From a virus (taxonomy: Duplodnaviria > Heunggongvirae > Uroviricota > Caudoviricetes): a stretch of 64,000 nt of DNA. The notes below the pieces were generated by a model, which worked only from the letters and a program-made list of their open reading frames with translations, did not search any database and was not told the DNA's origin. Both the position numbers and the translations under genes were made by a program. The first letter of the stretch is position 1. Each line of letters begins with the position of its first letter. The stretch lies in IMG/VR virus record IMGVR_UViG_3300020426_000391. One strand, given 5' to 3'. Of the stretch, positions 4,963-53,712 are shown in pieces.

Positions 4963-5916
4963 TCAGGCTGCCTTCCTTCGGCTGGCCAGGTCGATGACCT
5001 CGAATTCATTGGTCTCGCGCAGGGGGTTCTCAGGCTCGTCCACGTGCCCCTTGGGGTCGATGTGGATGATCACTTCCGTATCGGGGAATTCCTTGGCGAG
5101 GTCCGCCTCGATGTTGTCAATGATGTCGTGTGCCTCGCCGACGGTCACGTCGTCCGGCATGTCGACGTGGAACTGAGCGAAGTGCGTCGAACCGCTGGTG
5201 CGGGTGCGCAGATCGTGCAGGTTGGAAACCTCGTGGTGCTGGGCCACGATCAGGATCAGCTTCTCGCGGCGTTCCTCGTCCCATTCTCGGTCCATGAGAT
5301 GGTCGATGGCCTCGCTCGCGGTGTGCCAGGCTCCGTTGGCGAGCCATGCGGCGATGGCCAAGCCGCAGAGGGGGTCGATCCAGGTCACGTTGGTGAACGC
5401 CTGCGCGCCCATGGCGACGATGACCGACAGGTTGAGCAGGAGATCGCTCTTGTAGTGCATGGCGTCCGCCTTGATGGCGATCGAGCCGGTTCGCATGACG
5501 ACGAAGCTCTGGTATCCGATGAGCGCGAGCGTGAGGGCGATGGCGATTCCCGAGGCGATGATCGCCGGTCCTGTCGCGATATGCCCCGACGTAGGTGATG
5601 CGAGCTCCAGCATTGCCGAATAGGCGATGAGCAGGGCGGCGGCGCCGACGAGTGCCATCTGCGCGGCGGCACCGAGGGCCTCTGCCTTGCCGTGTCCGAA
5701 TCGGTGATCCTCGTCGGCCGGCTTGGCAGCGTAGGCGACGGCGATGAAGACCATCACCGAAGCGGCGAGGTCCAGGCCCGTGTCCGACAGACTGGCGAGC
5801 ATGGCGGTCGAGCCGCTGGCGAAGGCTGCCCATCCCTTGACCGCGAGAAGCGCGAGGGCGGTGCAGACCGAAGCGATGGCGGCGGAGCGGGTCAGTGCCG
5901 AACGTTCCGTTGTCAT
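4963..5916 (-). CDS. cation diffusion facilitator (CDF) family divalent-metal efflux transporter
   Basis: Six hydrophobic helices, HYKSDLLLN and H/D metal-site motifs, and a C-terminal cytoplasmic domain typical of CzcD/FieF. Confidence 0.8.
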   Translation of the reverse strand: MTTERSALTRSAAIASVCTALALLAVKGWAAFASGSTAMLASLSDTGLDLAASVMVFIAVAYAAKPADEDHRFGHGKAEALGAAAQMALVGAAALLIAYSAMLELASPTSGHIATGPAIIASGIAIALTLALIGYQSFVVMRTGSIAIKADAMHYKSDLLLNLSVIVAMGAQAFTNVTWIDPLCGLAIAAWLANGAWHTASEAIDHLMDREWDEERREKLILIVAQHHEVSNLHDLRTRTSGSTHFAQFHVDMPDDVTVGEAHDIIDNIEADLAKEFPDTEVIIHIDPKGHVDEPENPLRETNEFEVIDLASRRKAA

Positions 5917-6243: not shown

Positions 6244-7233
6244 TCAGGCTGCGATCTGTGAGAGGTGGCGGGGGAGGACGATCTCCGAGATCATCTTCTC
6301 GATCTCTTCATCTTCCGGCTTGGGCGGTAGCACGCTGTCGATCCGGTCGAGTTCGTCGACGAGGCCCTCGAGAAGGGGCTGGATCTCCGGATAGGCGAAC
6401 TTGCCGAGCTTGATGGCGAGCAGTTCCTCGGCATCGGGACGCGGAAAGGTGATGCTGCCCGTGAGCATGAGCTCGTGCGCCTGACGCGCGACGCGCACCG
6501 CGTGGCTGACGGCCTTCCAGTCGACCCCGTTGCTATCCTTGGCCTTGCGCGCCCGGTCACCGTAGTTCTTCCAGACGGCGCCGTAGATCTTGGAGGCCTC
6601 CTCCAGGTCGTTGCGCATCGAGACCTTGCGGTCGCAGCACTCGATGTGGAGCATGTCCGGCGTATGTCCCGAGGAGAGGACGATCATGTTCGCCATCTCG
6701 ACGCGCTCGGTGAACGCGCGGAGATCGTCCTCGATCACCTCCAGCCGGGTCTTGGGGCCGTGCTTCTCCTTGGCTTCGGCCAGAAGGACGACGAGCTTCT
6801 CGACCGCTTCCATGCGGCTGCCCTTGACGCCGTATTTCGCGGCCTGCTGCTTGCAGTATCCGACGAAGCCCTTGCAATCCGCATTGAGCAGTGTGCGTGC
6901 CTCGGCGCGCAGTGTCTCCCATTCCGGTGCGGCCTCGACGATGCAGTCGTCGGGAGCGAACAGGATCTCGGTCGCGACGCCGTCGCCCAGCGCCAGCATG
7001 CGGCAGAACTTCTCCACCGAGTAGGACTGGTGGTCCACGGCGTCACCTGTGTTCTTGCCGGCCGCGTTCTTCGCCTTGATCGATTCGTCGAACACGTTCT
7101 CGGGACGCTGGAGGAGGATGCCCCTGCCGCTGGGAAGATGGACACCCTTGTAATCCTCGTCCGAAGATGGCGTGCTCGTGCCGTACAGGTGCGAACCGTG
7201 AACGGTGGTGACGAGCTTTCGGAGCGGCTTCAT
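6244..7233 (-). CDS. Pol-beta superfamily nucleotidyltransferase (about 330 aa) with a C-terminal helical domain
   Basis: hG[GS]-x10-D-x-[DE] motif VHGSHLYGTSTPSSDEDY; further acidic residues at GDAVDH and FAPDDC. Likely start MKPLRKL at residue 32 of track ORF 6244..7326, directly after the upstream stop. Confidence 0.6.
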   Translation of the reverse strand: MKPLRKLVTTVHGSHLYGTSTPSSDEDYKGVHLPSGRGILLQRPENVFDESIKAKNAAGKNTGDAVDHQSYSVEKFCRMLALGDGVATEILFAPDDCIVEAAPEWETLRAEARTLLNADCKGFVGYCKQQAAKYGVKGSRMEAVEKLVVLLAEAKEKHGPKTRLEVIEDDLRAFTERVEMANMIVLSSGHTPDMLHIECCDRKVSMRNDLEEASKIYGAVWKNYGDRARKAKDSNGVDWKAVSHAVRVARQAHELMLTGSITFPRPDAEELLAIKLGKFAYPEIQPLLEGLVDELDRIDSVLPPKPEDEEIEKMISEIVLPRHLSQIAA

Positions 7234-7460
7234 ACGTAGACCCTGCGTGCTTCGCGTGCCGCGTGCTCGGCGCGTGCACGGGCCATGGTGGCCGACGCGC
7301 TCTCGGCTCGTTTCTTCAGCGCGCACGAGACGTGCTGCGTGAAGATGGCGGTGTAGTCCGAAGGCTTGCCGCCGAACTTGCGAGCTCGTTCCGCGGCCGA
7401 GGGGACGAGCTTGATGGGCTTGCTGCAGATCGTGCAGTGACCCTTGGGCGTCTTGCTCAT
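7230..7460 (-). CDS. hypothetical small basic protein, possibly Zn-binding (C-x2-C ... H-x3-C)
   Basis: Internal start MSKTPKGHCTICSKPIKLVP... in track ORF 7230..7706. Its stop overlaps the NTase start. Confidence 0.45.
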   Translation of the reverse strand: MSKTPKGHCTICSKPIKLVPSAAERARKFGGKPSDYTAIFTQHVSCALKKRAESASATMARARAEHAAREARRVYV

Positions 7461-7687
7461 TTTCCGTCCTTTCCGATGTCTTTCCAGAACGGCTGCCATC
7501 CGGAGCTGGTCTCCAGCAGCTGTTCGATCTCGTAGGCGTAGGCCGCCTGGGCTCCGAGGAGCCTCTGCCGCCTGATGAAGCGCCATCTCGGTGTCTTCTC
7601 GCGGCTGCGCTCGATCTCGTCGCGATGCTTCTCGAGGCGCGAGAGGATGACGCTCACGGGAAGCAGATGGTCGACCGGTGCTTCCAT
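7457..7687 (-). CDS. hypothetical small protein (77 aa)
   Basis: Internal start MEAPVDHLLPV... with upstream GGAAAGGGA RBS-like sequence. Overlaps the downstream gene by 4 nt. Confidence 0.45.
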   Translation of the reverse strand: MEAPVDHLLPVSVILSRLEKHRDEIERSREKTPRWRFIRRQRLLGAQAAYAYEIEQLLETSSGWQPFWKDIGKDGK

Positions 7688-7928
7688 GGCTGGTCCCTTT
7701 CCGCATTCTCGGGCATTGTGGCGATGATAGGATGGGTCACCCGCCATCTCGGCCTGCATTTCCGCTTGCGGTCGGCTGCAGGCTCCGGTGAACGAGTGAC
7801 CCCCGTAGCCGCATCCCCCGTCTCGCCCTGCTGTGCAGGGTCCGACGAAGGGATGCGCCCGAGCGAACGCCCCTCATGTCTCGCCCTGCAGTGCAGGGTC
7901 CGAAGAAGGGCGCGCTGTTCGTGTTGCG

Positions 7929-8333
7929 TTATCCGACCGTGGTGTAGACCGGTATGGAGAGCTGGTGCACGACGCAGAACTCGCCGCGATCCTCTGCGGC
8001 CGTAACCGTCGCATCCTTGTCCGGGACGTTGGGGCAGTAGACCGGCTGGTCCTCCTCGCCCTCGCATCCCATGAGGACGAGGTATTCGGTGTTGATGTCG
8101 ACCGGCTCGTCCGCGAAGTCCTCGATCATCGAGAAGTCCTCGATGTCGTCTTCGAGGATCGGCTGGAGGAGGTACTTGCCCTCCAGATCCATCTCGGCGA
8201 GCTTCGCCATGACCGCGCCTGCGGCGGCGAGGGTCAGGACCTCGAAGCTGGCGAAGTCGACGGGGCAGGTTCCATCGCCCTGGATGTTGTTACCGTTCTC
8301 GTCCGCGAGCTGGTATCCGATCAACTTGGCCAT
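7929..8333 (-). CDS. hypothetical acidic protein
   Basis: Track ORF with coherent GC3-rich codon usage. Confidence 0.45.
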   Translation of the reverse strand: MAKLIGYQLADENGNNIQGDGTCPVDFASFEVLTLAAAGAVMAKLAEMDLEGKYLLQPILEDDIEDFSMIEDFADEPVDINTEYLVLMGCEGEEDQPVYCPNVPDKDATVTAAEDRGEFCVVHQLSIPVYTTVG

Positions 8334-8486
8334 CTTGTATCTCCGTTGCTTGATGAGGATTACCCCGCACGCTTCGTGCGGGCAGGGCCGATGGCGGACG
8401 ACACGTAGCCGTGGCCCGTCGGATGCCGCGCGCCCATCGCGTGCGGGGTTTCCTTTTCCTCCCCTCCCGGGGATTCACATGTTCGC

Positions 8487-8765
8487 TTAGCTCATTAGCC
8501 TTCTTGCGAAGGCAGCCGCCTGCGACATCGTCTCCTGGTCGAGATCGAGCCCGTCGCAGGCCTTCTGTATCATGGTCTCCGCATCGCTGTGGAAGCGTGG
8601 GGACTGGCGGGTCTCTGTCCGCGTCTGGTTGCTCGTATTTCCGATGGTGCTTCCCGTTCGGGCGGAGCCGAGGGTGAGCGTTCTGCGTGTCCTCTCGCTC
8701 ATGCGCGAGACGTCCACGTCTTGGCATTCTCTATCATGATGTTCCCTGTGGTCTTGATCGCTCAT
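8487..8765 (-). CDS. hypothetical protein
   Basis: Track ORF 8487..8816; likely start MSDQDHREHH. Confidence 0.35.
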   Translation of the reverse strand: MSDQDHREHHDRECQDVDVSRMSERTRRTLTLGSARTGSTIGNTSNQTRTETRQSPRFHSDAETMIQKACDGLDLDQETMSQAAAFARRLMS

Positions 8766-12926: not shown

Positions 12927-13466
12927 CTACAGCATTCCCAGCATGCCCTTGGCGCGCGGCTTGCCGCCGCCGAGCTGCTCCCGCAGCTTCATCAGCAGCT
13001 GGCCCAGCACGTTCGCGCCGCGATACGTGCCATCGCCCTGGGGCTTCGCGCCCCAGAAGGCGTCACGCATGCTCAGCTCCACGATCTCGCGATCGTCGGT
13101 GCTCAGCAGCTCGTCGACGAACCGGCGGTTGGTCGACTTCAGCAGCAGCGCCTGCCACATCAGCTCCACATTCACCTCCAGCCAGTCGGCGCGGCTCTCG
13201 TCCACGCGCGCATGTGCGACCTGCTTGGCGAGGAAGCCGTTGCCCGCCAGGCGGATCTCTTCCTGCAGCGCCGGCAGGTGCGGGAAGCGCTGGGCCTGGT
13301 ACCACGCTTCCGAGCTCGTCCAGCGCAGGCCCGTCGCCGGGTCGACGAACGGCGCGCCGCCGGCCATATTCCCCAATATCCCCAAGGGGTCGCGGGCCTT
13401 GCAGAATACCGCGGCACGGCCGTCCTTGCTCCAAAGGCGGCTCTTATCGCTCTCAAACTCTACCAT
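12927..13466 (-). CDS. NADAR (DUF1768, YbiA-like) domain protein
   Basis: Matches YbiA/NADAR conserved blocks: W-T-S-S-E-A-W-Y-Q-A-Q-R-F, and DAFWGAKPQGDGTYRGANVLGQLLMKLREQL. Start MVEFESDK. Confidence 0.75.
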   Translation of the reverse strand: MVEFESDKSRLWSKDGRAAVFCKARDPLGILGNMAGGAPFVDPATGLRWTSSEAWYQAQRFPHLPALQEEIRLAGNGFLAKQVAHARVDESRADWLEVNVELMWQALLLKSTNRRFVDELLSTDDREIVELSMRDAFWGAKPQGDGTYRGANVLGQLLMKLREQLGGGKPRAKGMLGML

Positions 13467-13581
13467 TTTCCATCCTCCTGATCTTGGCAGGAGCACATCA
13501 TCTTGAGAATCTTCAACGTGGGTTGAAGACTGTCCGGAGAGTTTTGTGGGAACGCGTTTCTGTTGGAATATGTGTTGTCGC

Positions 13582-13863
13582 CTACAACGGAAGCGCATCC
13601 AGTGACGGGTAGGAGGTCTTGCGCTCGATCGGCGAGCGATAGGCAGGTTCCGACACGACCTCCTGCGTGAGGCTGTAGACCGACCGGCTGGTGCCGAGCC
13701 CCGTGGCGCGGTGGATGTAGCCTTCCTTCACCATGGAGATGAGACAATCGGAGATCTCGGTCTCGTCGCATTCGAAGGCGGCAGCGAATTCCGAATCGCT
13801 TCCGCGGATGGCTCCGTGGGCGACAAGGGCGGTGAGGATGTCATCGCGCAGGATGGTTCGCAT
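13582..13863 (-). CDS. hypothetical small protein, possibly winged-helix DNA-binding
   Basis: Start MRTILRDDILTALVAHGAIRGSDSEFAAAFECDETEISDCLISMVKEGYIHR resembles a wHTH recognition unit. Confidence 0.35.
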   Translation of the reverse strand: MRTILRDDILTALVAHGAIRGSDSEFAAAFECDETEISDCLISMVKEGYIHRATGLGTSRSVYSLTQEVVSEPAYRSPIERKTSYPSLDALPL

Positions 13864-19220: not shown

Positions 19221-19766
19221 TCAGGCGCGTTGGTCTTCGGTGTGGACGGTGCCGCCGAAGTTCAGGCGGTTGTAGACCTCCTTCAGCGCATCCAAGCTGA
19301 AGTCGCGGTCGATCGTGATGTATCCCAGAGGCGTGTTGCGGAACCGGCGTTGCTGTGGCAGATCAAGCTCGTCCCAGCTATGCTCATTCTCGGTGCCGAC
19401 GAATATGCGCATGCCTTCTTCCATATAGGCACGCAGAGAGTAGAGCCTATGTTTTCCGTCGAGAAGATTATCCGCCTGAATCGGGTATCTCCCCGTTTCA
19501 GGATCCATCTGTCCTTCATCTGATACGACGATGGTGCCGATGGAGATTCCCAGCCAGACACTCTCCACGAGACGCCTCTTCTGGTCGGTCGTCCAGACGT
19601 CGGGTCGCTGGTATGACGGAATGTAGAAGTGCCCGAGTTGCTCCAGCCCCTGAACCGAGCCTTCGAACATCTTTTCGTATTTTGGTTCGCGTTTCCGCAT
19701 GAGATCTGAAATTGTTCTCGAGCTGGTCGTGCCGCGGATGAGCGGCTGGGGAAGAGTGACGGTCAT
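19221..19766 (-). CDS. DUF262 (ParB/Srx-like nuclease or NTPase domain) protein, short stand-alone form
   Basis: YQRPDVW....RRLVESVWLGISIGTIVV and LLDGKHRL correspond to the DUF262 QR and DGQQR signature blocks. Confidence 0.6.
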   Translation of the reverse strand: MTVTLPQPLIRGTTSSRTISDLMRKREPKYEKMFEGSVQGLEQLGHFYIPSYQRPDVWTTDQKRRLVESVWLGISIGTIVVSDEGQMDPETGRYPIQADNLLDGKHRLYSLRAYMEEGMRIFVGTENEHSWDELDLPQQRRFRNTPLGYITIDRDFSLDALKEVYNRLNFGGTVHTEDQRA

Positions 19767-20142: not shown

Positions 20143-22587
20143 TCAGAAGCGCAGGTTCCAGCTGCTGACCGCGCGCACGTCACGGCCTTCGACGTCGCTC
20201 GCCGCACCGAAGCGGAAGGCGGAGCGTTCGCCGGTCTTCTCGTAGCCGAAGGTCAGCTGCGGAGCCATCCGGCCGCGCATGTCGACGGTGCGATCCTCGA
20301 AGGTGAGGCCGCGGATGCCGAGATCGTAGCCGTTGCCGACGGTAAAGGTCGCATTGCCCGAGAGCGCGACCAGCCGCTGAGCGACCCCGAAGCTCACGAG
20401 ACCGCCGAGGGCCTCGCGGCTGGCGGTGAGACCGAACCGTCCGCTGGTGATCGTGTCCGCATCGGTGAGCAGCATGTCGTCGGCCAGCTTCAGGCGCGTC
20501 GCGCCCAGGCTCGCATAGCCGTCGAACTGCCAGCGACCGAGGTCGAAGCCGCTCGCGGCCTCGACGAACACCGTGCTCGAGCCGTCACCGAAGCGCATCG
20601 CGCCGGCGCCGACCGGAGTGCCGAAAACCGTGCCGGTCTCGTCGACCAGTCCGAGCTTCAGCGAGGAGGGACCCTGCTGCCACTGGACCGTCAGGCCGTT
20701 GGTGGCGGTGTTCTCCTGGCGTCCGACGTATGCCGAGACCGCGAGGCGTCCCTCGCCCAGCTTGTGGCTCACGCCCATGCTGGTCTGCGCGAGCGGCGAG
20801 TAGGCGAACATCGCGTCCGAGGTTGGCGCGAGGCCCATGACATCGTCCATGACGTTGTCACCGGTGTTGTAACCGGCGGTCACGGTCGTGTCCTCGTTCA
20901 TGCGGAACGCGAAGGCGGCGTTCGACAGGTGGTTCCGGAGCACCGGATCACCGTTCGAGTCGCGGAACTGCGTCTCGAAGGCCGTGTAGCCGATCGAGGC
21001 CGAGGCCTTGGGACTGATGAAGCCGGTGGACCCGGCGTTCGTCTGCGCCTGGACCCGGCGCTGCAGCCAGTTGGCGTTCGCCTGGCCCGGACGGATCACG
21101 AGACCCGAGATGTCGCCATCGTAGTCGCGACCGTAGGCATCGAGGACGGTGACGTCGCTGTAGACCGATTCGATCGAGGACGGACCGTATCCGCCACCGA
21201 AGGCACCGCCCACGACCATCACCGAGTTGTCGATCGAACTCGAGGTCTTGCCGTTCGACAGCATCGGATCGACGGGCGACAGAGCGGCCTTGGCATCGAT
21301 CAGGCCGTGTCCGTAGATCTCGTCGACGCCCGCCTCGCCGATGTCGCGAGCGGTGTTGATGATCACGTTGCCGGCGTCCACGCCGGAGAGCTGCGGCCAC
21401 TTGGACAGGATCATCGCAGCGAGCGCAGTGACCTGCGGTGCGGCCGAACTGGTGCCGCCGAAGCCGACGATTTCGCCGTTCACGTCATGCGTGACGTTGC
21501 TTCCGACCGCAGCGACGCAGCGATCCATCGCCAGGCCGCAGTGGTTGGAGTAGCTCGCGATCTTGTATTCGGTCTGCGACGGCGCGAGAGCCACGACGAA
21601 CAGCAGCGCCTCGGCGTTTGCGTCGGTCATGTCCAGGTAGTTGCCGGGATTGTCCTGCACGTTGTTGCCCGCGCTATTGATCACGAGGCCACCGAATGCG
21701 GCATAGTCAGCCAGCACGTTCTGCATGATGGCCGAGGTCGTGGTCGGATCGCTGCGGCTCAGCGACATGTTCAGCAGCTTGATGTCGTTCGCGATGGCGT
21801 ATTCGATCGCCTCGTTGCTGCGGAAGCCGTACATGCGATTGCCATTCACCATCGCGTCGACCCGCAGCGAGACGAGCGTGACGTCCGGAGCGAGGCCCTG
21901 GACGCCCTGGCCGTCGTTGCGTGCACCGATGATCGCAGCCACCGGAGTGCCGTGGATCGAGGTCCCGTCCCCGCTGTTGGCTCCGCCTTCGCGGGGCTGC
22001 AGCTTGCCGTCGACGACGACGCCGCCGAAGTCGCGACTGAGCTCGCGATCGACCTGGCCTTCGAGCTCCGGAATGGCGTTGATGCCGTCGTCGAGGATGC
22101 CGACGAGGACGCCTTCACCGGTCCAGCCGTTGTCGAGCGCGTAGAGAGCGTTGATGTATTCGGCCGCGGTGTAGTTGCGACGATATTCGGTGTCGTCCTG
22201 GACCGAGCGCTGCGGCTGCTGGTCGCGGGGAGTGATCACGTAGCCCGCGGGCGGGGGCACCGGTGCGCAGTTCGGCTCGCACGACGGAGGCGTCGGAGTG
22301 GGAGTGGGAGTGGGTGCCGGAGTCGGAGTGGGCGTCGGCGTCGGCGTGGGTGCCGGCGTGGGTGCCGGCGTGGGTGCCGGCGTGGGCGTGGGTGCCGGCG
22401 TGGGCGTGGGTGCCGGCGTGGGCGAAGGTGCCGGAGTCGGAGCGGGTGCCGGAGCGGGCGACGGGGTGCCCACCGGAGGAGGGGGCGGAGCGGGAGTCGA
22501 CTGGACACCGCCGCCGCCGCCGCAGGCTGCGAGACTGGCGAGTGCGACCGTGCTGGCGGTCACGCGCAGGATCTGTGAAATCTTCAT
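20143..22587 (-). CDS. S8 subtilase autotransporter lipoprotein (814 aa)
   Basis: Lipobox LAACGG; long Pro/Thr/Ala linker. S8 triad motifs ILDDGI, HGTPVA, GTSSAAP. C-terminal beta-barrel-like region ending in an aromatic residue (WNLRF). Confidence 0.8.
22290..22475. repeat. tandem GC-rich short repeats (ggcgtgggtgcc units) encoding the PT/PA linker of the autotransporter
   Basis: Visible head-to-tail repetition of 6-12 nt units. Confidence 0.7.
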
Positions 22588-23420: not shown

Positions 23421-24032
23421 TCAGGCGTCTTTCGAAGATTCTATGAGATCCAGGATGATCCTGTAGATTATGATGTTGTGAGGATCGCTAGCCATGCTCG
23501 TCATAACGTCTTGCACGTCTTCCGGGGTGAACCGGTATTCCTCCGGGACGTAGCTCAGTCGCGGTATTCTCGTTTCCCGGACACGCGGCCCCGTCGTCAT
23601 GGATACGCGCTTGTTCGCGACACGCATGGCGACTTTCGCCGTTCCGCTATGCCCGGGTGAGATCTCGATCGTGGCTCTCGTGGCGATTCCATCTCCCGTC
23701 ATCGTCCGCAGTGCCGTTGAGGGGATGATGCGTGGCTCACGCATGTTCGCTGTCGCGACTCCGATCAGCAGGTCTCCGGCCAGCCCCCTGGCCAACAGTG
23801 CTGCCGATTGCTTTTCCGTGGCGCTGTAGAACCAGATCAGCATGAGGGCGATGGTTGCGAGCACTGTCTGCATGGTATCGAAGAGCGTTGCGGGGATTAA
23901 GGCGGAGGAGAGTATCTGCATCGCGAGGCATATCGTCAGGACGACGCTGACCGCCTGCTGGATCGTCGCGCTCCTGTTCCTGCGCCGGAGCGATGTCCAG
24001 CGCAGGTCGATCATCTCGCTGACGGGGTTCAT
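23421..24032 (-). CDS. hypothetical membrane protein (2 predicted TM helices)
   Basis: Hydrophobic stretches VSVVLTICLAMQILSSALIPATLF and LATIALMLIWFY. Confidence 0.45.
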   Translation of the reverse strand: MNPVSEMIDLRWTSLRRRNRSATIQQAVSVVLTICLAMQILSSALIPATLFDTMQTVLATIALMLIWFYSATEKQSAALLARGLAGDLLIGVATANMREPRIIPSTALRTMTGDGIATRATIEISPGHSGTAKVAMRVANKRVSMTTGPRVRETRIPRLSYVPEEYRFTPEDVQDVMTSMASDPHNIIIYRIILDLIESSKDA

Positions 24033-24646
24033 GTCTCTTCGCTGGTCACAGCCAGCGATCTCACGAGCCGGGCCTGGGTGGTCAGTCCCAGTTTGATGTT
24101 CTGGTAGGCGGCGTATTGTGCAGGGAAGTTGCGGCGCGCGACCTTCATCATCGGGATGATGCGCTCATCTGTGAAGTCCACGTAGGACAGCATCTTCTTC
24201 TGGTTGAACACACCGCCCATGGTGTGCTGGTTCATCAGCCTGTCGACGGGTTTGCCGATCGAGGCTATCGGGCATGCGGCCATCGCCTGATAGAGCATGT
24301 CCTCGTCGCGCTTGTCGCCGTTCTCGTCGATCTTGGTCATGCGCCATGTCGCGTCCGCGATCTGTTCGCCGAACCGTCCCGCGACCTCATGGCGCGATAC
24401 GGGGGTGTCCTCGATCGTATCGTGCAGGAAGGCCACCGCGATCGTGGCCTCCGGGAAGATGAGTCCGGGCAGGGTCGAGATGTGGATTGCGATCTCCGTC
24501 TGGTGCGCGAATTCGGGAGTGACATTGTCCTTTCGCGTGCCCTGGTGATGCTGCCGTGCGAATTCCATGGCTTCCAGTGCGACATTGTATCCACGCCCCT
24601 GCAGCCAGCCGCGCAGGAATACCGTCTGTTTCTGAAACTCGTTCAT
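24029..24646 (-). CDS. HD-domain (p)ppGpp hydrolase-like protein (small alarmone hydrolase, SpoT/Mesh1-type)
   Basis: H...HD motif AFLHDTIEDT with an upstream His (EFAHQTEIAIH). Size about 205 aa. Start MNEFQKQ. Confidence 0.65.
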   Translation of the reverse strand: MNEFQKQTVFLRGWLQGRGYNVALEAMEFARQHHQGTRKDNVTPEFAHQTEIAIHISTLPGLIFPEATIAVAFLHDTIEDTPVSRHEVAGRFGEQIADATWRMTKIDENGDKRDEDMLYQAMAACPIASIGKPVDRLMNQHTMGGVFNQKKMLSYVDFTDERIIPMMKVARRNFPAQYAAYQNIKLGLTTQARLVRSLAVTSEET

Positions 24647-24740
24647 GGCAGGTTTTCCCTTCTCTGATATATCTCTTGCACCCCCTGACACCGAGAGGGT
24701 GACGGGTCGTCCGATTCCCCCTGGGCGGCCCGTCTTCGCG

Positions 24741-25205
24741 TCAGCCTGGCTGTCCGATGCCTACCCTGTAGTAGGGTATGCCTTCCCATTCCTCGGACAG
24801 CGGCTCCTGGAGCTTGCGCGCCATTGCGACCGCCTCGGAGCGATCGCTAGAATGGCAGGTGACGCGCTTCAGGTTCGCGAACCGCGCCGGTTCTTCGAGC
24901 ATGAGGTGGAGGACGCGTTCGACCGCATCATGCCCGGTCGTCGTTCCCGATCCGAGATACCAGTCGAGGGAGAGGCGCTCGAGGCGGCCCGGCTCGAGGG
25001 TCCGCAGCAGTTCCATGAGCGCGGTGACGCTCTTGACCAGCGTCCATCCCTCGGGAGGTGCGCGTTCGTCGTCGAGATAGATCTTCACGCCGCCTTCGGT
25101 CGGAGGGGTTTCGCGCCGGAGGGCTTCCTGTTCAGCTTTGCGGGCGAGGAACTTCGCCGACGGCTTGCGCGGTTTCTTGGGAGGCTTGATCTTGAAGCCG
25201 CTCAT
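24741..25205 (-). CDS. hypothetical protein with a basic N-terminal tail
   Basis: Track ORF; KIYLDDERAPPEGW block is of unknown family. Confidence 0.4.
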   Translation of the reverse strand: MSGFKIKPPKKPRKPSAKFLARKAEQEALRRETPPTEGGVKIYLDDERAPPEGWTLVKSVTALMELLRTLEPGRLERLSLDWYLGSGTTTGHDAVERVLHLMLEEPARFANLKRVTCHSSDRSEAVAMARKLQEPLSEEWEGIPYYRVGIGQPG

Positions 25206-29567: not shown

Positions 29568-30686
29568 TCAGTCGTCCTGCCCGAATTTCCTGAGGAAGAC
29601 GTCGCAGTGCGTCTTCAGTATCGGTCGCATGAAATTGCCGAGCTTGGTCTGGCGCATGTCCTGTTCGCCGACAGCCCGGATGACGATTCCCTCGCGGATG
29701 TGCTTGGCATCGAGAGTGGTGTCCCCCTCGCGCAGTTCCTCGACCTTTGCCGCGTCGTACATGCCGCGCCACAGCACGGGTGCGGGCTGGATCCCGGCCT
29801 GCATGAGATAGCTGTCGATCTCGGTCTCGTTGAGCCAGCGCTGGCCCACGCGGATGTCGAATCCGCGCACGGATGGCTTGCTCTGGCCGTAGTGAAGCTT
29901 CTTGATGCCCGGCCCGATGGCTTCGGCGAAGAGCTGGACGGTCTGGTCGGCCGCGCGCATATTGTGGACCATCATGCCGAAGCGGCGGATGAGATCGGCG
30001 TTGCGCGCGGCGCGGATGACGGGCACCTTCTCTGAGGCCTCGCACTCGCGGAAGATGAGACCTTGTCGGGCGAGTCCCTTGGTGGCGATCGCGATCTGTC
30101 CGTCACCGTGAGCCCCTTCGACCGGTTCGTCACCGAGCCAGGTCATTTGGAGGCACTCGCCTTCGAGCTTCTCGGTGATGACGACCTCCGAGCCTTCCAG
30201 GAATTCGGGATAGGTCTTGAGTCGGCCGATCTGGTAGTCCACCTTGGCGCGAGCGACGGGCATGGCGATCTTCAGGAGTTCGGGGTCGATCTCCGGAATC
30301 CATTCGGTGATGCCGAAGTGGTCCGAGACGTCGGTGGTATCGGGCAGGTGCGCGAGTTCATCGGGCAGCTTCCACAGCAGCCCTGTCGAGAGCTGGCCGC
30401 GCAGGGTGACCGGCTTGATGACGTCGCCGCCGGGGCCGGAGAGGAGGCCCATCTCGGTTTCCTTCTGGGGATGCAGGCCCCAGAAGCCGTGCTCCTTGAG
30501 GAGATTCTCGGGCAGGCGGCAGCCCTCTGCCACGTAGACGACCCGTTCGCCGACGGCGAACCGCGGGCTGCCGTCGGGCAGGTTGTTGCTCACGGCGTCG
30601 TATCCGAGGACCTTGTAGGCTGTGAGCCGATCGGCCTTGGGGATGTGATGCGTGCCGGTGATGGGAAGAATGCGTGCGGTCGTCAT
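29568..30686 (-). CDS. ATP-dependent RNA ligase-like nucleotidyltransferase (Rnl family)
   Basis: Motif I EKLEG (KxxG), motif III LFAEAIGPG, motif IV REGIVIR (EGhVh), motif V TKLGNFMRPILK. Confidence 0.55.
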   Translation of the reverse strand: MTTARILPITGTHHIPKADRLTAYKVLGYDAVSNNLPDGSPRFAVGERVVYVAEGCRLPENLLKEHGFWGLHPQKETEMGLLSGPGGDVIKPVTLRGQLSTGLLWKLPDELAHLPDTTDVSDHFGITEWIPEIDPELLKIAMPVARAKVDYQIGRLKTYPEFLEGSEVVITEKLEGECLQMTWLGDEPVEGAHGDGQIAIATKGLARQGLIFRECEASEKVPVIRAARNADLIRRFGMMVHNMRAADQTVQLFAEAIGPGIKKLHYGQSKPSVRGFDIRVGQRWLNETEIDSYLMQAGIQPAPVLWRGMYDAAKVEELREGDTTLDAKHIREGIVIRAVGEQDMRQTKLGNFMRPILKTHCDVFLRKFGQDD

Positions 30687-39993: not shown

Positions 39994-40079
39994 GGAGGGT
40001 GGCGCAGGATGGCTGCAAACCGGATTCGAAACCCGGGCCTACCGAAAGGTAGAGAGTTCGACTCTTTCACCTTCCGCCA
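39994..40079 (+). tRNA. tRNA-Ser-like, anticodon CGA, type II with a non-canonical D-arm
   Basis: GGAGGGU acceptor pairs with ACCUUCC-G-CCA. Anticodon arm CCGGA UUCGAAA CCCGG, variable hairpin CUACCGAAAGGUAG, T-arm GAGAG UUCGACU CUUUC. The D region cannot be folded canonically. Confidence 0.45.
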
Positions 40080-43483: not shown

Positions 43484-43561
43484 TGGCGCGCCCTAGTGGA
43501 CTCGAACCACTGACCTACGGTTTAGAAGACCGTTGCTACTATCCAGCTGAGCTAAGAGCGC
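43484..43561 (-). tRNA. tRNA-Arg (anticodon UCU), CCA encoded
   Basis: RC GCGCUCUUAGCUCAGCUGGAUAGUAGCAACGGUCUUCUAAACCGUAGGUCAGUGGUUCGAGUCCACUAGGGCGCGCCA. Confidence 0.75.
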
Positions 43562-44075: not shown

Positions 44076-44152
44076 TGGTGCGCTCGACAGGATTCGAACC
44101 TGTGGCCTCCGGATTAGGAATCCGATGCTCTATCCGACTGAGCTACGAGCGC
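44076..44152 (-). tRNA. tRNA-Arg (anticodon CCU), copy 2, CCA encoded
   Basis: Same cloverleaf as copy 1 with 3 substitutions (cctccgg vs cccccgg; ccgactg vs ccagctg). Confidence 0.85.
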
Positions 44153-44467: not shown

Positions 44468-44553
44468 ATGGAGGCCCAGACAGGATTTGAACCTGCGTTC
44501 CTTTCGGAAACCATGGATTTGCAGTCCAGTACCTTACCGCTCGGTCACCGGGC
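44468..44553 (-). tRNA. atypical type II (long variable arm) tRNA with anticodon GCA and discriminator U73, CCA encoded
   Basis: RC GGCCCGG UG ACC GAGCGGUAA GGU A CUGGA CUGCAAA UCCAU GGUUUCCGAAAGGAAC GCAGG UUCAAAU CCUGU CUGGGCC U CCA. Confidence 0.6.
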
Positions 44554-44599
44554 CCCTTCGATGCGACCTTGTAGGATGAGGTCGCGAATTGTCAAATGC

Positions 44600-45250
44600 C
44601 TACCAGCGTTCTCCGCAGATGAACGCCATGTTCCCGGCTTGCGGACGGATCATGAGATTGCGTTCCGCCATGATCTCGAGCCCCCAGGTCTTCTCCTCCA
44701 GGCCGGGAACGCGCTGGACGCGCAGCTTCAGGCCGAGTTCCGGCACCTCGATGATCTCGGTGGGGATGAGCTTGCCCTTGAAGGGGCCATGCTGCCGCCA
44801 TACGACGAACTCCTCGGGCTCGCCCTGCGGTTCGCCGAAGGCCTTCTCGGCCTGCTTGATTGCGCTGTCACGGGACTTCTCGGCAGAGGCGATCCGGTCT
44901 GCCGCCCACTTGGGCAGACGCTTCATACGCCTTTCCTCCAGTTCCGCGGCGTCCAGCCTGGCATCGGGCACGTCCGGTCCTTCGATGTCGAGGTTCTGCG
45001 CGGCGTCTTCGAGAACGGTCTTCAGATCGAATCCGTCGATCGCGTCGATGAGCTCCTCGAGCGCTCCGTGGTCCATGGCCATGATCTGTCCGTTGTCGCC
45101 TTCACGCGCTCCATCGCTCATGTTGTCGAGCGATTCGCCGAGATCGTCGCGGATGCCACGCAGGTCGTCGAGAGCGGCCTCCATGGTCGTTCGCGCTGCC
45201 GCGATCGCTTCGAGAGCCTTCTTCGCCTTCGCGCTGCGCTGCTTGTTCAT
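44600..45250 (-). CDS. hypothetical protein (about 216 aa)
   Basis: Internal start MNKQRSAKAKK; ATGA overlap with the upstream gene. Confidence 0.4.
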   Translation of the reverse strand: MNKQRSAKAKKALEAIAAARTTMEAALDDLRGIRDDLGESLDNMSDGAREGDNGQIMAMDHGALEELIDAIDGFDLKTVLEDAAQNLDIEGPDVPDARLDAAELEERRMKRLPKWAADRIASAEKSRDSAIKQAEKAFGEPQGEPEEFVVWRQHGPFKGKLIPTEIIEVPELGLKLRVQRVPGLEEKTWGLEIMAERNLMIRPQAGNMAFICGERW

Positions 45251-45645
45251 GTCTGCTTCTCCCTGTCCCTCATTCGGGTTCCGCGCGTGATGGCGTTCGA
45301 ATCCGTCTTGCTCATCGGCCCCATGATGGCGCATGTCTGTGTCGGGCCGGCAAAGACCGTCCTGCCCTGGTCCCGCACGATCTCGACGTGGACGCCACGT
45401 TTGCGCGCTCTCTCGACGACCTTGGCCAGATGGTCTTCATCATCTACCTCGATGCATATCTTCGGTTGCCCGTCGGCGAGATACTGGTTGACGAGAAGCG
45501 GCTTGTCGATGGCGAGGCGGACGCCCGCCGAGAAGGCCGCATGTGCTGCCTGGACCTCGGACTTGCCTCTGGTCATCTCGTCGAGGTCGCCGCGGAACGC
45601 GAGCACCATCCTCATTTCCGCGTGGTTCTCCGCTTTCTTGTCCAT
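45247..45645 (-). CDS. peptidyl-tRNA hydrolase, PTH2 family
   Basis: RMVLAFRGDLDEMTRGKSEVQAAHAA, GQPKICIEVDDEDHL and DQGRTVFAGPTQTCAIMGP align block by block with archaeal/eukaryotic Pth2. Confidence 0.7.
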   Translation of the reverse strand: MDKKAENHAEMRMVLAFRGDLDEMTRGKSEVQAAHAAFSAGVRLAIDKPLLVNQYLADGQPKICIEVDDEDHLAKVVERARKRGVHVEIVRDQGRTVFAGPTQTCAIMGPMSKTDSNAITRGTRMRDREKQT

Positions 45646-46091
45646 CAGGCCGCCTGCTTCCGTGCTGCACCCCAGGGCTCGGGTTCGAGATTGTGGACCT
45701 CGACGCCGTAGAGGACGGCCTGGAAGAGCGCGATCCTGTCCTGCTTCCGCAGGAGATTGAAGCGTTTGGCCAGATATGTCGCCGTGAGGAACAGCCGGAA
45801 GAATTCGTCGCTCTGGGTGGTGATGAGGTTTATCTCGCCCTTGCGCCAGGAACGGAAGCCACCGGCGTCGTTTCCCGTGTAGAATTCGGGTGAACCCTCT
45901 TGGCTGAAACCAGCCTCCTGAAGTTTTTCGACTGGAACTTCTCGAACCAGCACCAGCCAGTCTTCGTCGGTATCCGTTGGCGCCGGATCACAGGTCACCC
46001 TGCTGCCGACCGGTTCCGCGTTGGCCAGCACGTCCGCGAGAGCCTCTGCGATCGTCTCGGGCAGCTTGGGGTTGACCGTCTTTTCCATCAC
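45645..46091 (-). CDS. hypothetical protein (148 aa)
   Basis: Track ORF immediately downstream of serS. Confidence 0.4.
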   Translation of the reverse strand: MMEKTVNPKLPETIAEALADVLANAEPVGSRVTCDPAPTDTDEDWLVLVREVPVEKLQEAGFSQEGSPEFYTGNDAGGFRSWRKGEINLITTQSDEFFRLFLTATYLAKRFNLLRKQDRIALFQAVLYGVEVHNLEPEPWGAARKQAA

Positions 46092-46100
46092 CTTCTCCTC

Positions 46101-47366
46101 TCAGCCAATTGCTTCCCTGTTTCCCATGTAGGGTCGCAGGGCCTCGGGGATGGCGACGCGTCCGTCTTCGAGAAGATTGTTCTCGATGATCGCGACAAGA
46201 GCGCGTCCCACGGCGAGCCCGCTCCCGTTGAGGGTGTGCACATGACGCGTCTGGCCGTCCTCTCCACGATAGCGGGCGTTCATGCGCCGCCCCTGGAAGT
46301 CGCCGCACCAGCTGATGCTGGCGATCTCGCGGTAGGCGTTCTGTCCCGGCATCCAGACCTCGATGTCGTAGGTCCGGCGCGCCGCGAATCCCATGTCGCC
46401 TGCACACAGCAGGACGACGCGGTAGGGCAGTTCGAGCCTGTCGAGGATCCGGCAGGCGTCGGCTAGCATCCTGTCGTGTTCCGCCTGCGCGTCCTCTTCG
46501 CGGCAGATCGTCACCAGCTCGACCTTCTCGAACTGGTGCTGCCGGATGTATCCGCGCGTATCCCGGCCGGCGGCGCCTGCCTCGGCGCGGAAGCACTGAG
46601 TCAGCGCCGTCAGTCGCATGGGCCTCTCGAGATCTACGATCTGTTCTCGCACGAGATTGGTGAGGCCCACCTCGGCGGTCGGGATGAGCCACCGGTCATC
46701 GGCGGTCACGAACAGGTCCTCTTCGAACTTCGGGAGTTGCCCGGTGCCTTCGAGGACTTCACGTTTCACCAAGAGCGGGATCGCCGTCTCCTGGTAACCG
46801 GCCTCGTCCGTCTGGATGTCGAGCATGAACTGGCCGAGTGCGCGCTGGAGTCGCGCCATCTGGCCGCGCAGCACTGTGTTGCGTGTGCCGGCGAGGAGCG
46901 TGCCCGCCTCGAAGTCCATGCCGAGTTCGGGGCCGAAGTCGGCATGGTGCCTGCCGGCCTCGCCGGGATCTCCTCGGCGGGCGATCTCGACATTGTCGTT
47001 TTCGTCCGCGCCGTCAGGCACATCCTCGGCCGGAATGTTGGGTAGATTGAGGAGATGTTGGTGCTGCTGTGCGGGGATGTCGTCCTGCTTCAGGTCGTAT
47101 GCGGCGATCCAGTCCTTTGCTTCCGTCACTTCCCCCTTGAGGCGCTCGGCCTTTTCGGTGTCGCCGGCCTTCATCGCCTCGCCGATCTGCCTGCTCTTGG
47201 CGTTGCGCTCGGCGAGGCGCTTCTGCTTCTCAGTCTCGTTGTCACGCAGGGCCCGGTCGAGGACGAGCAGTCGCTTGACCTGCTCTCCGGCGTCGGGAAC
47301 GCCCCGACGCGTCAATCCGTCGACATATGTCTGCGGATCGGCCCGCATTGCCTTGATGTCGTGCAT
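46101..47366 (-). CDS. serS: seryl-tRNA synthetase
   Basis: Full-length class II SerRS, including TGQLPKFEEDLF, CFRAEAGAAGRDTRGYIRQHQFEKVE, GDMGFAARRTYDIEVWMPGQNAYREIAS and HTLNGSGLAVGRALVAIIEN. Near-colinear with E. coli SerS. Confidence 0.95.
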   Translation of the reverse strand: MHDIKAMRADPQTYVDGLTRRGVPDAGEQVKRLLVLDRALRDNETEKQKRLAERNAKSRQIGEAMKAGDTEKAERLKGEVTEAKDWIAAYDLKQDDIPAQQHQHLLNLPNIPAEDVPDGADENDNVEIARRGDPGEAGRHHADFGPELGMDFEAGTLLAGTRNTVLRGQMARLQRALGQFMLDIQTDEAGYQETAIPLLVKREVLEGTGQLPKFEEDLFVTADDRWLIPTAEVGLTNLVREQIVDLERPMRLTALTQCFRAEAGAAGRDTRGYIRQHQFEKVELVTICREEDAQAEHDRMLADACRILDRLELPYRVVLLCAGDMGFAARRTYDIEVWMPGQNAYREIASISWCGDFQGRRMNARYRGEDGQTRHVHTLNGSGLAVGRALVAIIENNLLEDGRVAIPEALRPYMGNREAIG

Positions 47367-47378
47367 GGGATTTTCCTT

Positions 47379-47903
47379 TCAGATTCCCTGTTTCATGGCC
47401 GCCAGGGTCAGTCTGTCGACTCCCACGGCCCAGCCGCATCCGTTCTCGTAGCTTCCGCCGCCGGCGATCTGCTTCTGCGCACCGAGTGCTTCCACCCGGG
47501 CCTCGAAGCCGTTGCGCGAGTAGTAGGAGAGACCGCGCACGGCGTCTCCGTCGATGTCGCATTCGACGCCTGTCGCCTTCAGGGCGCTGACGAGCAGGTC
47601 GCGGCATTCGTCTTCGTAGTAACCGGGCCCTAGGACTTCGATCCCGAACTGGGTGAATTCGCGGTAGCGCCCGGCCTGCGGCCGCTCGTAGCGATAGCAG
47701 CGCTGCTCGTAGAAGACCCGGATCGGCTTCGGGAGCGACTTGCCCCAGCGTTCGCGGTATTCGCGCTGCAGGAGTGCGGTTGCCTCGGGAATGAGCGTGC
47801 AGGGGCGCCCGCCCTTGTCGTCGAAGGTCCACATCTGTCCTTCGATCTCGCGTCCCGACCGGTCGTACCATACGTCCGGTTCGGCGATCGCGGGGAGGAT
47901 CAC
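47379..47903 (-). CDS. HisRS-like class II aaRS catalytic-core fragment (about 174 aa); lacks the insertion and anticodon-binding domains and has a non-ATG (GTG) start
   Basis: Motif 1 region MWTFDDKGGRPCTLIPEATA, motif 2 YRYERPQAGRYREFTQFG, HisA-like RGLSYYSRNGFE, motif 3 GGGSYENGCGWAVGVDRL. The upstream in-frame sequence runs into a TAG without an ATG. Confidence 0.55.
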   Translation of the reverse strand: MILPAIAEPDVWYDRSGREIEGQMWTFDDKGGRPCTLIPEATALLQREYRERWGKSLPKPIRVFYEQRCYRYERPQAGRYREFTQFGIEVLGPGYYEDECRDLLVSALKATGVECDIDGDAVRGLSYYSRNGFEARVEALGAQKQIAGGGSYENGCGWAVGVDRLTLAAMKQGI

Positions 47904-48494: not shown

Positions 48495-48568
48495 TGGAGC
48501 GGACGACCGGATTCGAACCGGCATTCTCAGCTTGGAAGGCTGATGCTCTACCATTGAACTACGTCCGC
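48495..48568 (-). tRNA. tRNA-Gly (anticodon UCC), CCA encoded
   Basis: RC GCGGACGUAGUUCAAUGGUAGAGCAUCAGCCUUCCAAGCUGAGAAUGCCGGUUCGAAUCCGGUCGUCCGCUCCA. Confidence 0.85.
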
Positions 48569-52314: not shown

Positions 52315-52680
52315 ATGAGCGGACGAGGTATCCTGATAGTCGAGGACGAAGTCCTCATCTCGATGAGTCTCGAGGACGCTCTGCATGACTGGGGGTACGA
52401 TGTGGTCGGCATCGCCCCCACGCTTGACGCGGCCTTCGGGAAGCTCTCATCGACTTCCTTCTGCGCTGCCATCCTCGATATAAATCTCGGTCGCGATCTG
52501 GTATGGCCGTTCGCCCGTGCCCTCATGGGCAGGGGGATAGGCTTCACGTTCCTGAGTTCCGATTGCGAGCGCGACGACTTTCCGTCCGATCTCGCTGGTG
52601 CTCACCGCATGTGCAAGCCCTTCGAGGAACGCCATCTGCAGGTGGTAATGAGGTCTCTCGTCCTTCCTCGTTGCGCCTGA
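52315..52680 (+). CDS. single-domain response regulator (CheY-like receiver)
   Basis: ILIVEDE acidic pocket, phospho-acceptor Asp in AAILDINLG, conserved Lys in CKPF. Confidence 0.8.
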   Translation: MSGRGILIVEDEVLISMSLEDALHDWGYDVVGIAPTLDAAFGKLSSTSFCAAILDINLGRDLVWPFARALMGRGIGFTFLSSDCERDDFPSDLAGAHRMCKPFEERHLQVVMRSLVLPRCA

Positions 52681-53712
52681 TCAGCCGATCGCCCGCGAGT
52701 TGATCCCGAACTGGCAGAGCAGTCCGGTCTCCAGCCATTCCAGCATGAAGTCGACTCCGGAGTTTGAGCTCATCCGCTTCATCAGCTGATGCCCGCTGCC
52801 GCTGTCTCCCGGGACTATCGGCACACCCGAATCCTCGCTCCATGTGAAGGTGAGAATGCCCTCCTTCTCCTGGCATTCGATCCTGACCGTTCCCTGGTCC
52901 TCGGAGAGGGCTCCGTATTTGAGGGCATTGGTCGAGAGTTCGCCGAAGATGAGGGCCATGGTCGCCAGGGCCTGTGGCCCTACGGTCGCCTCCGGCATCC
53001 CGGAGATAGTCACCTGCCTGCTTCTGCCCGTGGCCGCCAGGATGGACTGGATGGCCTCGTTCAATTCCACCGGCTGGTTGTCCCGTGCCGAGAGGATGTC
53101 CTGTGAGGTCGAGAGGCTCATCATCCGTCGGTTGAAGGATTCCATGAAGCCCTTGGTGTCATTGTGATCTCTGGCGGTCATGGCGGCCAGAGATCTGATC
53201 GCGGTGATCTGGTTCTTCAGGCGATGCCGCATCTCCCGTGAGATGAGGTCCCGCTCCTCCGCGGTGTTCCTCGCCTCCTCGAGCATGGCCTGGGACTGCA
53301 TCTGCTCGTTCCGGATGCGCGTTATGTCGCGTGACACGGCGAGGGCGCCGCTGACGCCCTTCTCGTCTTCGATGCTGGTCACGGTCACATCCCACCATGC
53401 ATCCTGACCGTTGCGCGGTCGATACGCCTCGAAGCGGTGCCGCCTCCCGTCGAGCGCCTCCTCGAGTCCGATCTGGACACTGGTCCGCGCCGTCTCGGGC
53501 CATTGCATGACCCAGCCTTCGTCCGTCTCCTCCTGGTCTCCGCAAGGGTTAGCATCGGAGGAGTTGGTGGCGATGACCCGCCCGTCCATGCCGATGATCT
53601 CCACGCAGTCACTGCTGCGCATCAGGGCTTCTTCTATTCTGTTCATTCTTTTCCGTCCGGATTCACTTGCTTTATGGATAACCAGCGTCGGGTCGTTCTG
53701 CAATCGTGTCAT
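52681..53712 (-). CDS. PAS-domain HWE-family sensor histidine kinase
   Basis: H-box HRLKNQ (HRxKN) typical of HWE/HisKA_2 kinases, ATPase block ELSTNALKYGA, N-terminal PAS-like region. Convergent with the receiver gene. Confidence 0.75.
   Translation of the reverse strand: MTRLQNDPTLVIHKASESGRKRMNRIEEALMRSSDCVEIIGMDGRVIATNSSDANPCGDQEETDEGWVMQWPETARTSVQIGLEEALDGRRHRFEAYRPRNGQDAWWDVTVTSIEDEKGVSGALAVSRDITRIRNEQMQSQAMLEEARNTAEERDLISREMRHRLKNQITAIRSLAAMTARDHNDTKGFMESFNRRMMSLSTSQDILSARDNQPVELNEAIQSILAATGRSRQVTISGMPEATVGPQALATMALIFGELSTNALKYGALSEDQGTVRIECQEKEGILTFTWSEDSGVPIVPGDSGSGHQLMKRMSSNSGVDFMLEWLETGLLCQFGINSRAIG

Follow-up and report, generated by a model that had tools for sequence, protein, structure and literature searches.

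Peptidyl-tRNA hydrolases of the PTH2 family have been described across jumbo phages by Iyer, Anantharaman, Krishnan, Burroughs and Aravind in 2021 (Viruses 13:63, PMC7824862), who reported that the phage enzymes are of the archaeo-eukaryotic type and not the host Pth1, that they probably hydrolyse peptidyl-tRNA linkages in ribosome rescue, and that they belong with RNA repair. The same survey lists RNA ligases, RlaP, cREC, NADAR, Nudix and HD-alarmone phosphodiesterase proteins in jumbo phages (PMC7824862). In cluster C mycobacteriophages, a PTH2-like gene is found in about 96% of tRNA arrays (PMC5966550). Here we examined a PTH2-type gene at positions 45247 to 45645 of a stretch of viral DNA (Caudoviricetes; IMG/VR record IMGVR_UViG_3300020426_000391), which was analysed over its whole length of 64,000 nucleotides and is called the window below. 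Using tblastn, PTH2 was found in at least 30 deposited phage records, with 26–38% identity to the window protein. Many of these proteins are annotated as peptidyl-tRNA hydrolase, one of them explicitly as 'archaeal type', and some of the records are uncultured phages of 460–595 kb. Carriers include the Mycobacterium phages Myrna (gp36) and Baka (gp70), the Sinorhizobium phages phiM12, phiM7, phiN3 and Phosso, Agrobacterium phage Atu_ph07, Xanthomonas phage XacN1, Salicola phage SCTP-2, Klebsiella phage RaK2, and CcrBL9, and in BFVD phages and giant viruses together account for more than 20 PTH2 models. The original prediction had rightly taken Pth1 to be the usual bacterial enzyme, and had implied that a PTH2 in a phage is a rarity. 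The rarity was overstated, because the family has been found and annotated in many phages and the 2021 survey had made the same point about its non-Pth1 nature (PMC7824862).

The open reading frame (ORF) extends on the minus strand from an ATG at 45645 to a TGA at 45247, exactly where it had been predicted, and its third-position GC content of 0.80 is like that of other minus-strand genes in the window. When the 132-residue product was compared with Pfam using hmmscan, it matched PF01981 (PTH2) with E=1.4e-22 and 80.5 bits over profile positions 1–110 of 115, the gathering cutoff being 23 bits, and no second significant family appeared. The expected placement in PTH2 was therefore firm, and nothing pointed to an unrelated family. 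A phmmer search of PDB sequences gave human Bit1/PTRH2 (1q7s) as the best match at 1.6e-13, and the other matches, down to 4e-8, were Ta0108 (1rlk) and the archaeal Pth2 entries 2zv3, 1xty, 1wn2 and 1rzw. A profile built from the clade of the window protein recovered all seven PTH2 chains in the PDB (2.4e-20 to 1.5e-15) and no other family at E≤0.001. The Pth1 family gave no match to the protein at E≤1 in Pfam, NCBIfam or the PDB. The 132-residue protein is thus a member of PTH2, the archaeal/eukaryotic-type peptidyl-tRNA hydrolase family, and the identification is far beyond chance.

The fold was then examined using an AlphaFold2 model built with 22 homologues as input (mean predicted local distance difference test score 85, predicted template-modelling score 0.78). 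The modelled protein has four strands (residues 10–18, 62–67, 86–92 and 102–111) and four helices (28–47, 49–57, 70–82 and 113–120), and the PTH2 fold is described as a compact alpha/beta structure with a four-stranded sheet and four helices (PMC11202043). In a Foldseek search of the PDB, the 14 best matches of the model were all PTH2, while the following match had E>0.02. Target-normalised template-modelling scores against PTH2 crystal structures were 0.80–0.84, with root-mean-square deviations of 2.3–3.1 Å. Alignment with the Pth2 of S. solfataricus (1xty) revealed that K28, Q32, H35, D92, G94 and T96 correspond to K18, Q22, H25, D86, G88 and T90. All six residues are invariant in 22 close sequences as well as in 21 very divergent phage PTH2s, and K28, D92 and T96 are predicted to be active-site residues. 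K18 and D86 are presumably the catalytic residues of the S. solfataricus enzyme, reportedly identified as such by Fromant et al. in 2005. Furthermore, the ratio of non-synonymous to synonymous substitution rates (dN/dS) was 0.17 when the gene was compared with its 79%-identical homologue in a related phage, demonstrating that the gene is under purifying selection.

From the fold, the family membership, the conservation of catalytic positions, the purifying selection and the gene context we infer an enzymatic activity and a biological role. With a probability of roughly three in four, the gene product is an active peptidyl-tRNA hydrolase of the PTH2 type and belongs to a phage-encoded set for tRNA supply and maintenance in an uncultured marine jumbo or huge phage. 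This reading is supported by the recurrence of PTH2 in large phages, where the literature reads it likewise, and by its position among tRNA and aminoacyl-tRNA synthetase genes in a window that also carries RlaP, RNA ligase, cREC and HD_4 genes. The phage PTH2 would bind off-ribosome peptidyl-tRNA or N-blocked aminoacyl-tRNA, as archaeal Pth2 and human PTRH2 do, and would take the peptide or N-blocked amino acid off the tRNA 3′ end by ester hydrolysis, after which the freed tRNA would rejoin the charging pool. It would act as one component beside at least 12 tRNAs, a seryl-tRNA synthetase (SerRS), RNA ligase, RlaP, cREC and an HD alarmone-type hydrolase. Such a set could sustain translation of phage mRNA and lessen dependence on the host Pth1, and might be of benefit when drop-off is high or when tRNAs are damaged by host nucleases or toxins.

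Several points weigh against an active recycling enzyme of a phage. The protein did not reach the cutoffs of the NCBIfam equivalog models of archaeal Pth2 (73.2 versus 82 bits for TIGR00283 arch_pth2 and 78.5 versus 126 bits for NF003314); by NCBI thresholds it is a family member and not an 'equivalog', and its NCBI name is nonetheless aminoacyl-tRNA hydrolase. The C-terminus of the clade is non-canonical and basic (ITRGTRMRD versus the canonical ITGxLKLL), and substrate preference could therefore differ; a C-terminal motif, GPMSKTDSNAITRGTRMRD, is particular to the clade of the window protein. The neighbours of PTH2 differ widely between phages, so that context says little about its precise role, and the searchable literature yielded no biochemical work on a phage PTH2. 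Finally, neither the window nor the flanks examined contained a terminase, portal, capsid or other virion hallmark gene, and for this reason the phage identity of the replicon is something we infer.

We found that PTH2 shares the 64-kb window with 12 tRNAs (ARAGORN), RlaP, RNA ligase and cREC, as in the RNA-repair complement that Iyer et al. 2021 described for jumbo phages. The RlaP gene, encoding an RNA-ligase-associated Pol-beta nucleotidyltransferase (Pfam PF10127), lies at 6244..7326, and that of an ATP-dependent RNA ligase (Pfam PF09414; TIGR02306 at 1.5e-32) at 29568..30686, both on the minus strand. An HD protein with alarmone-hydrolase features had been predicted at 24029–24646. The protein is real and matched Pfam HD_4 with E 2e-9, while its longest ORF is 24029..24691 on the minus strand. 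It is of the SpoT-hydrolase or small alarmone hydrolase (SAH) type: its PDB matches were the SpoT hydrolase domain, PaSAH and MESH1, and the HDxxED and DRxxN motifs are present as HDTIEDT and DRLMN. Immediately upstream of this gene is a cREC_REC gene (24741..25205, minus strand; Pfam PF20274, E 2.9e-16) for a cyclic-phosphate-processing receiver domain, a role proposed by Iyer et al. 2021 (PMC7824862). This neighbour suggests that the substrates of the HD enzyme may include RNA 3′ ends in addition to free alarmones. Further accessory genes in the window encode a DNA ligase, a NADAR protein, a GmrSD_N protein, two C5 DNA methylases and two metallophosphoesterases. PADLOC gave no match for PTH2, HD_4, RlaP, the RNA ligase or the neighbouring genes.

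These genes also bear on a second explanation, in which PTH2 is a dedicated counter-defence enzyme, reversing host attacks that target the acceptor end of tRNAs or tRNAs bound to the ribosome, with general recycling secondary. PTH2, RlaP and the SAH-like HD phosphohydrolase would then form one pathway. In one variant the enzyme would strip the N-acetyl-amino acids left by GNAT toxins of the TacT/AtaT type; in another, proposed for cleaved tRNAs by Iyer et al. (PMC7824862), it would free peptides from tRNAs cut by anticodon nucleases for repair by RNA ligase and RlaP. The most informative neighbourhood was found in the related viral contig L011 (IMGVR_UViG_3300015214_000133; loci examined outside the window carry L numbers), whose PTH2 is 48% identical to the window protein and whose RlaP is 35% identical to that of the window (E 5e-57). 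In this locus a compact cluster at 6496–8588 consists of PTH2, RlaP, an 89-residue ORF and HD_4, with the PTH2 stop overlapping the RlaP start and HD_4 following one gene further on. The cluster is flanked by IS605 OrfB/TnpB-like genes, and four tRNAs lie 5 kb downstream. The cREC–HD_4 pair of the window, with RlaP and RNA ligase in the same DNA, is also in favour of counter-defence, as is a RelA/SpoT-family gene for a synthetase, or nucleotidyltransferase, domain 0.9 kb upstream of PTH2 in phiM12 (L019 3211–3963, SmphiM12_365). It has been reported that bacterial Pth undoes the TacT acetylation of Gly-tRNA (PMC9241777), that SAH enzymes undo the pyrophosphorylation of the tRNA CCA end by toxSAS enzymes, and that toxSAS of the CapRel type act in anti-phage immunity, all of which count for this explanation. 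However, the PTH2–RlaP–HD adjacency occurred at one locus, L011, of about 17 independent PTH2 neighbourhoods, and in the window the three genes lie near 45.2, 6.2 and 24.0 kb, with separations of 21–39 kb (21 kb between PTH2 and HD_4). In addition, Pth2 enzymes are not known to counter any defence system, and a literature search on this point found nothing. Because the activity required is identical, sequence cannot separate recycling from counter-defence; we regard the dedicated counter-defence role as possible and clearly the less probable of the two.

A more elaborate form of this idea seems doubtful to us, namely that PTH2, RlaP and the SpoT-type HD hydrolase, together with cREC, constitute a phage pathway that repairs tRNA 3′ ends which host immunity has attacked and so counters acceptor-end toxins. 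In such a pathway PTH2 would clear away N-acetyl-amino acids or peptides that stem from GNAT toxins or remain on stalled or cleaved tRNAs, the HD enzyme would take off 3′ phosphates or pyrophosphates left by toxSAS or by nucleases, and RlaP would rebuild the missing 3′ nucleotides. In chemical terms, it would make sense for PTH2 and the HD enzyme to cooperate only if they divided the work, with the removal of pyrophosphate left to the HD enzyme, because PTH2 hydrolyses the ester bond of N-blocked aminoacyl-tRNA and would not remove a CCA-end pyrophosphate. The link between the two proteins is circumstantial, the L011 cluster and the cREC–HD_4 pair of the window being single instances each.

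We then compared the surroundings of PTH2 in other phages. In Myrna, a gene for a CCA-adding enzyme lies 3.4 kb from PTH2; in Phosso, a tRNA-Cys and a tRNA-Met are near it; and in XacN1 it has phosphoesterase, NADAR and Nudix genes nearby. The remaining deposited phages examined had only hypothetical proteins around PTH2. More distant relatives of the window gene have unrelated neighbours: NADAR, Nudix and R2K ATP-grasp genes in L007, ankyrin genes in L009 and tail genes in L010. Searching IMG/VR with the single PTH2 protein returned no relative, and a search with the clade alignment returned seven loci. A degenerate DNA pattern for DAGRTVFxxPT was found in 10 viral contigs only, six of which came from loci already known. 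Since this is too few for statistics, we make no claim of neighbourhood enrichment. Proteins of 799–1046 residues with faint TSP1_ADAMTS repeat matches were also seen in this phage (L028 11923–15063) and in a relative (L007 10515–19772), where three such giants come directly after PTH2.

In four phage loci that are independent of one another (L007, L013, L017 and XacN1), a NADAR gene lies at most 10 kb from PTH2. Those recorded outside the window are at L007 194–853, L013 4132–4560, L017 5008–5562 and L020 7809–8249. The NADAR gene of the window, at 12927–13598 (minus strand, assigned by homology), lies 32 kb from PTH2. It could be argued from such proximity, and from the Nudix genes near PTH2 in L007 and XacN1, that the PTH2-fold hydrolase has been repurposed, either for another ester substrate (for example one linked to ADP-ribose or a nucleotide, in an NAD-centred conflict) or for non-catalytic binding resembling Bit1/PTRH2 signalling. 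The unusual C-terminus of the clade and the scores under the NCBIfam equivalog cutoffs agree with this. Both NADAR and Nudix are common in jumbo-phage accessory regions, so their proximity may be incidental, and every conserved active-site position of PTH2 is kept in very divergent phage homologues, with no extra domain. We therefore consider repurposing very unlikely.

The replicon itself is most likely an uncultured marine jumbo or huge phage and not a bacterial chromosome, in agreement with the phage-like context originally described. The window has about 62% GC, its plausible genes lie almost without exception on the minus strand, and most of the proteins have neither a Pfam nor a PHROG match, with PHROG matches in seven of 48 other window proteins scanned. 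An identical PTH2 protein was found on at least 23 marine metagenome contigs, including TARA contigs, of up to 227,742 and 265,950 bp, and a member of its ≥90%-identical cluster is on a contig of 497,348 bp. Relatives of the protein are on IMG/VR viral contigs, in one case beside tail-fibre or baseplate genes. Clade-specific PTH2 motifs occurred in none of 185,579 species-representative genomes (GTDB), a result that concerns these clade-specific patterns and makes no statement on bacterial PTH2 generally. About 10 kb beyond the left edge of the window contained further ORFans and no virion genes.

Some genes of the window have a cellular look. On the minus strand these are an FtsK/SpoIIIE-like ATPase (1959–3290), a subtilase-like protease fragment (3378–4097), a CDF cation-efflux transporter (4963–5916), a GmrSD_N protein (19221–19766) and an 814-residue subtilase (20143–22587). 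A PAS-HWE histidine kinase (52681–53712, minus strand) stands next to a divergent gene for a 121-residue receiver domain (52315–52680, plus strand), and this two-component pair is kept in L001, L022 and L023. HWE kinases are typical of Alphaproteobacteria, and the kinase hints at an alphaproteobacterial host. That the gene is instead bacterial, acquired laterally by a cellular genome, as its NCBI/UniRef label 'aminoacyl-tRNA hydrolase [uncultured Salinicola sp.]', the lack of a virion hallmark in the 64-kb window or about 10 kb past its left edge, and the CDF transporter, HWE kinase and subtilase might suggest, is highly improbable given the one-strand gene layout over 64 kb, the at least 12 tRNAs in arrays, the majority of proteins without Pfam or PHROG match, the adjoining genes of phage families (one of them in 22 phage genomes), the RlaP, RNA ligase, cREC, NADAR and HD genes and two DNA methylases that form a typical jumbo-phage accessory set, the viral contigs that carry relatives, one by tail-fibre or baseplate genes, and the absence of the clade motifs from the species-representative genomes, while the contigs that do carry the gene are 0.17–0.5 Mb long.

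Turning to the immediate surroundings, the PTH2 gene was found to be translationally coupled on both sides to two phage genes of unknown function, and the same arrangement appeared in independent gene calls on metagenome contigs. The upstream gene (45645..46091, minus strand; 147–148 residues, phrog_15166) has a TGA that shares one nucleotide with the PTH2 ATG. Homologues of it are present in 22 phage records, among them those of small phages of Xanthomonas, Pseudomonas and Agrobacterium, and because these small-phage carriers were not among the tblastn matches of PTH2, it is probably no dedicated PTH2 partner. The downstream gene (44600..45250, minus strand) encodes 216 residues, of which the N-terminal half is acidic and the C-terminal region is a DUF7239, and its ATG overlaps the PTH2 stop (ATGA). 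The PTH2–DUF7239 pair is kept in L001 to L006, L022, L023 and L039. PDB sequence searches with both coupled neighbours gave chance-level matches only (antibody chains and EttA).

Further upstream is serS, encoding a full-length SerRS of 421 residues (46101..47366, minus strand; Pfam Seryl_tRNA_N and tRNA-synt_2b; phrog_16140 at 4.8e-139), which is closest to the SerRS of Brevundimonas jumbo phages with 47–49% identity. Directly upstream of serS, at 47379..47903 on the minus strand, is a 174-residue fragment resembling histidyl-tRNA synthetase (HisRS; Pfam tRNA-synt_His) with a partial class II core only, which scored 128.8 bits against a TIGR00442 cutoff of 286.75. The fragment is present in L001 and L022 and missing from the close strain L039/L040 and from L023; it was either inserted recently or is what is left of a decaying gene. 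The original prediction had placed PTH2 between an atypical tRNA and serS, which is loosely right; one gene intervenes on each side, the 147-residue gene over the 456 nt to serS upstream and the 216-residue gene over the 693 nt to the tRNA downstream. In the direction of transcription the order is tRNA-Gly, small ORFs, the HisRS-like fragment, SerRS, the 147-residue protein, PTH2, the DUF7239 protein, tRNA-Cys and two tRNA-Arg. A scan for promoters and terminators found none on the coding strand, so co-transcription of serS, the 147-residue gene, PTH2, the DUF7239 gene and the tRNA on one transcript is plausible.

The atypical tRNA is a tRNA-Cys(GCA) of 86 nt at 44469..44554 on the minus strand (ARAGORN; Rfam RF00005 at 55 bits). 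Its shape is that of a class II tRNA: the variable arm measures about 17 nt and includes a GAAA-capped stem. The CCA is encoded, and the tRNA retains U73 and GCA, the identity elements for cysteinyl-tRNA synthetase. This long-arm tRNA-Cys is kept in three related phages at 86–88 nt (L022 11092–11177, L023 11062–11149), in each of which it lies just downstream of the PTH2–DUF7239 pair. Bacterial SerRS recognises its tRNAs mainly by their long variable arm. With such an arm and a phage serS 1.5 kb away, this tRNA(GCA) may be charged with either Cys or Ser. The other tRNAs of the region, called by ARAGORN and Rfam on the minus strand, are tRNA-Arg(CCT) at 44076..44152, tRNA-Arg(TCT) at 43484..43561 and tRNA-Gly(TCC) at 48495..48568. 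By eye we also noticed a tRNA-Ser(CGA)-like sequence at about 39996–40079 on the plus strand (GGAGGGTGGCGCAGG...TTCGAAA...CCGCCA), just upstream of an array of Tyr, four Leu and Gln tRNAs; ARAGORN called its counterpart in L022 and L023 and not in the window.

The constancy of the arrangement was examined in the closest relatives. L022, where PTH2 is 79% identical, has the same gene order as the window. L023, where it is 67% identical, keeps the 147-residue gene, PTH2, DUF7239 and the long-arm tRNA-Cys without SerRS and the HisRS-like fragment; in both, the 147-residue gene adjoins PTH2. A linkage to serS as a property of the PTH2 gene was ruled out by L023, which lacks serS, and by the unrelated neighbours in the distant relatives. 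For the same reasons, the adjacency to serS is lineage-specific and recent.

Taken alone, the PTH2 gene is of little consequence, adding a divergent marine clade to the documented phage PTH2s. It confirms that large phages carry a tRNA-recycling enzyme of their own of a non-bacterial type, and could serve as the first phage PTH2 to be tested biochemically. It also provides another data point tying PTH2 to RlaP and SpoT-type HD hydrolases, and if that link were functional, it would suggest a route by which phages repair the acceptor ends of tRNAs.

Compared with known systems, the window protein is closest to the PTH2s of jumbo and other large phages. Like them, it is a single-domain protein (about 110–155 residues in the group) with invariant K, Q, H, D-x-G-x-T and G-P, and it is encoded in tRNA-rich DNA, probably of a large phage, with RNA ligase, RlaP, cREC, NADAR and HD-alarmone hydrolase; these phage genes are often close to tRNAs or tRNA-processing genes. 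It differs from the deposited phage PTH2s in belonging to a distinct clade, so far found in metagenomes only, with its own C-terminal motif, in being coupled to a DUF7239 gene, and in standing beside serS, which it does in this lineage only. Archaeal Pth2 (S. solfataricus 1XTY, M. jannaschii 2ZV3, P. horikoshii 1WN2 and A. fulgidus 3ERJ) and human PTRH2/Bit1 (1Q7S) have the same fold with 25–35% identity, and their Lys and Asp positions are conserved in the window protein. In contrast to these, the window protein begins with 10 additional, disordered residues and ends in a basic tail where they have the hydrophobic LKLL, and its gene is probably that of a bacterial virus, whereas theirs are cellular genes of archaea or eukaryotes. 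The bacterial enzyme Pth1 (Pth, PF01195) presumably performs the same reaction on the same substrates, but is unrelated to PTH2 in sequence and structure. Collectively, the window PTH2 is a new, divergent marine member of the documented group of phage PTH2s, and all elements of its context have been catalogued before.

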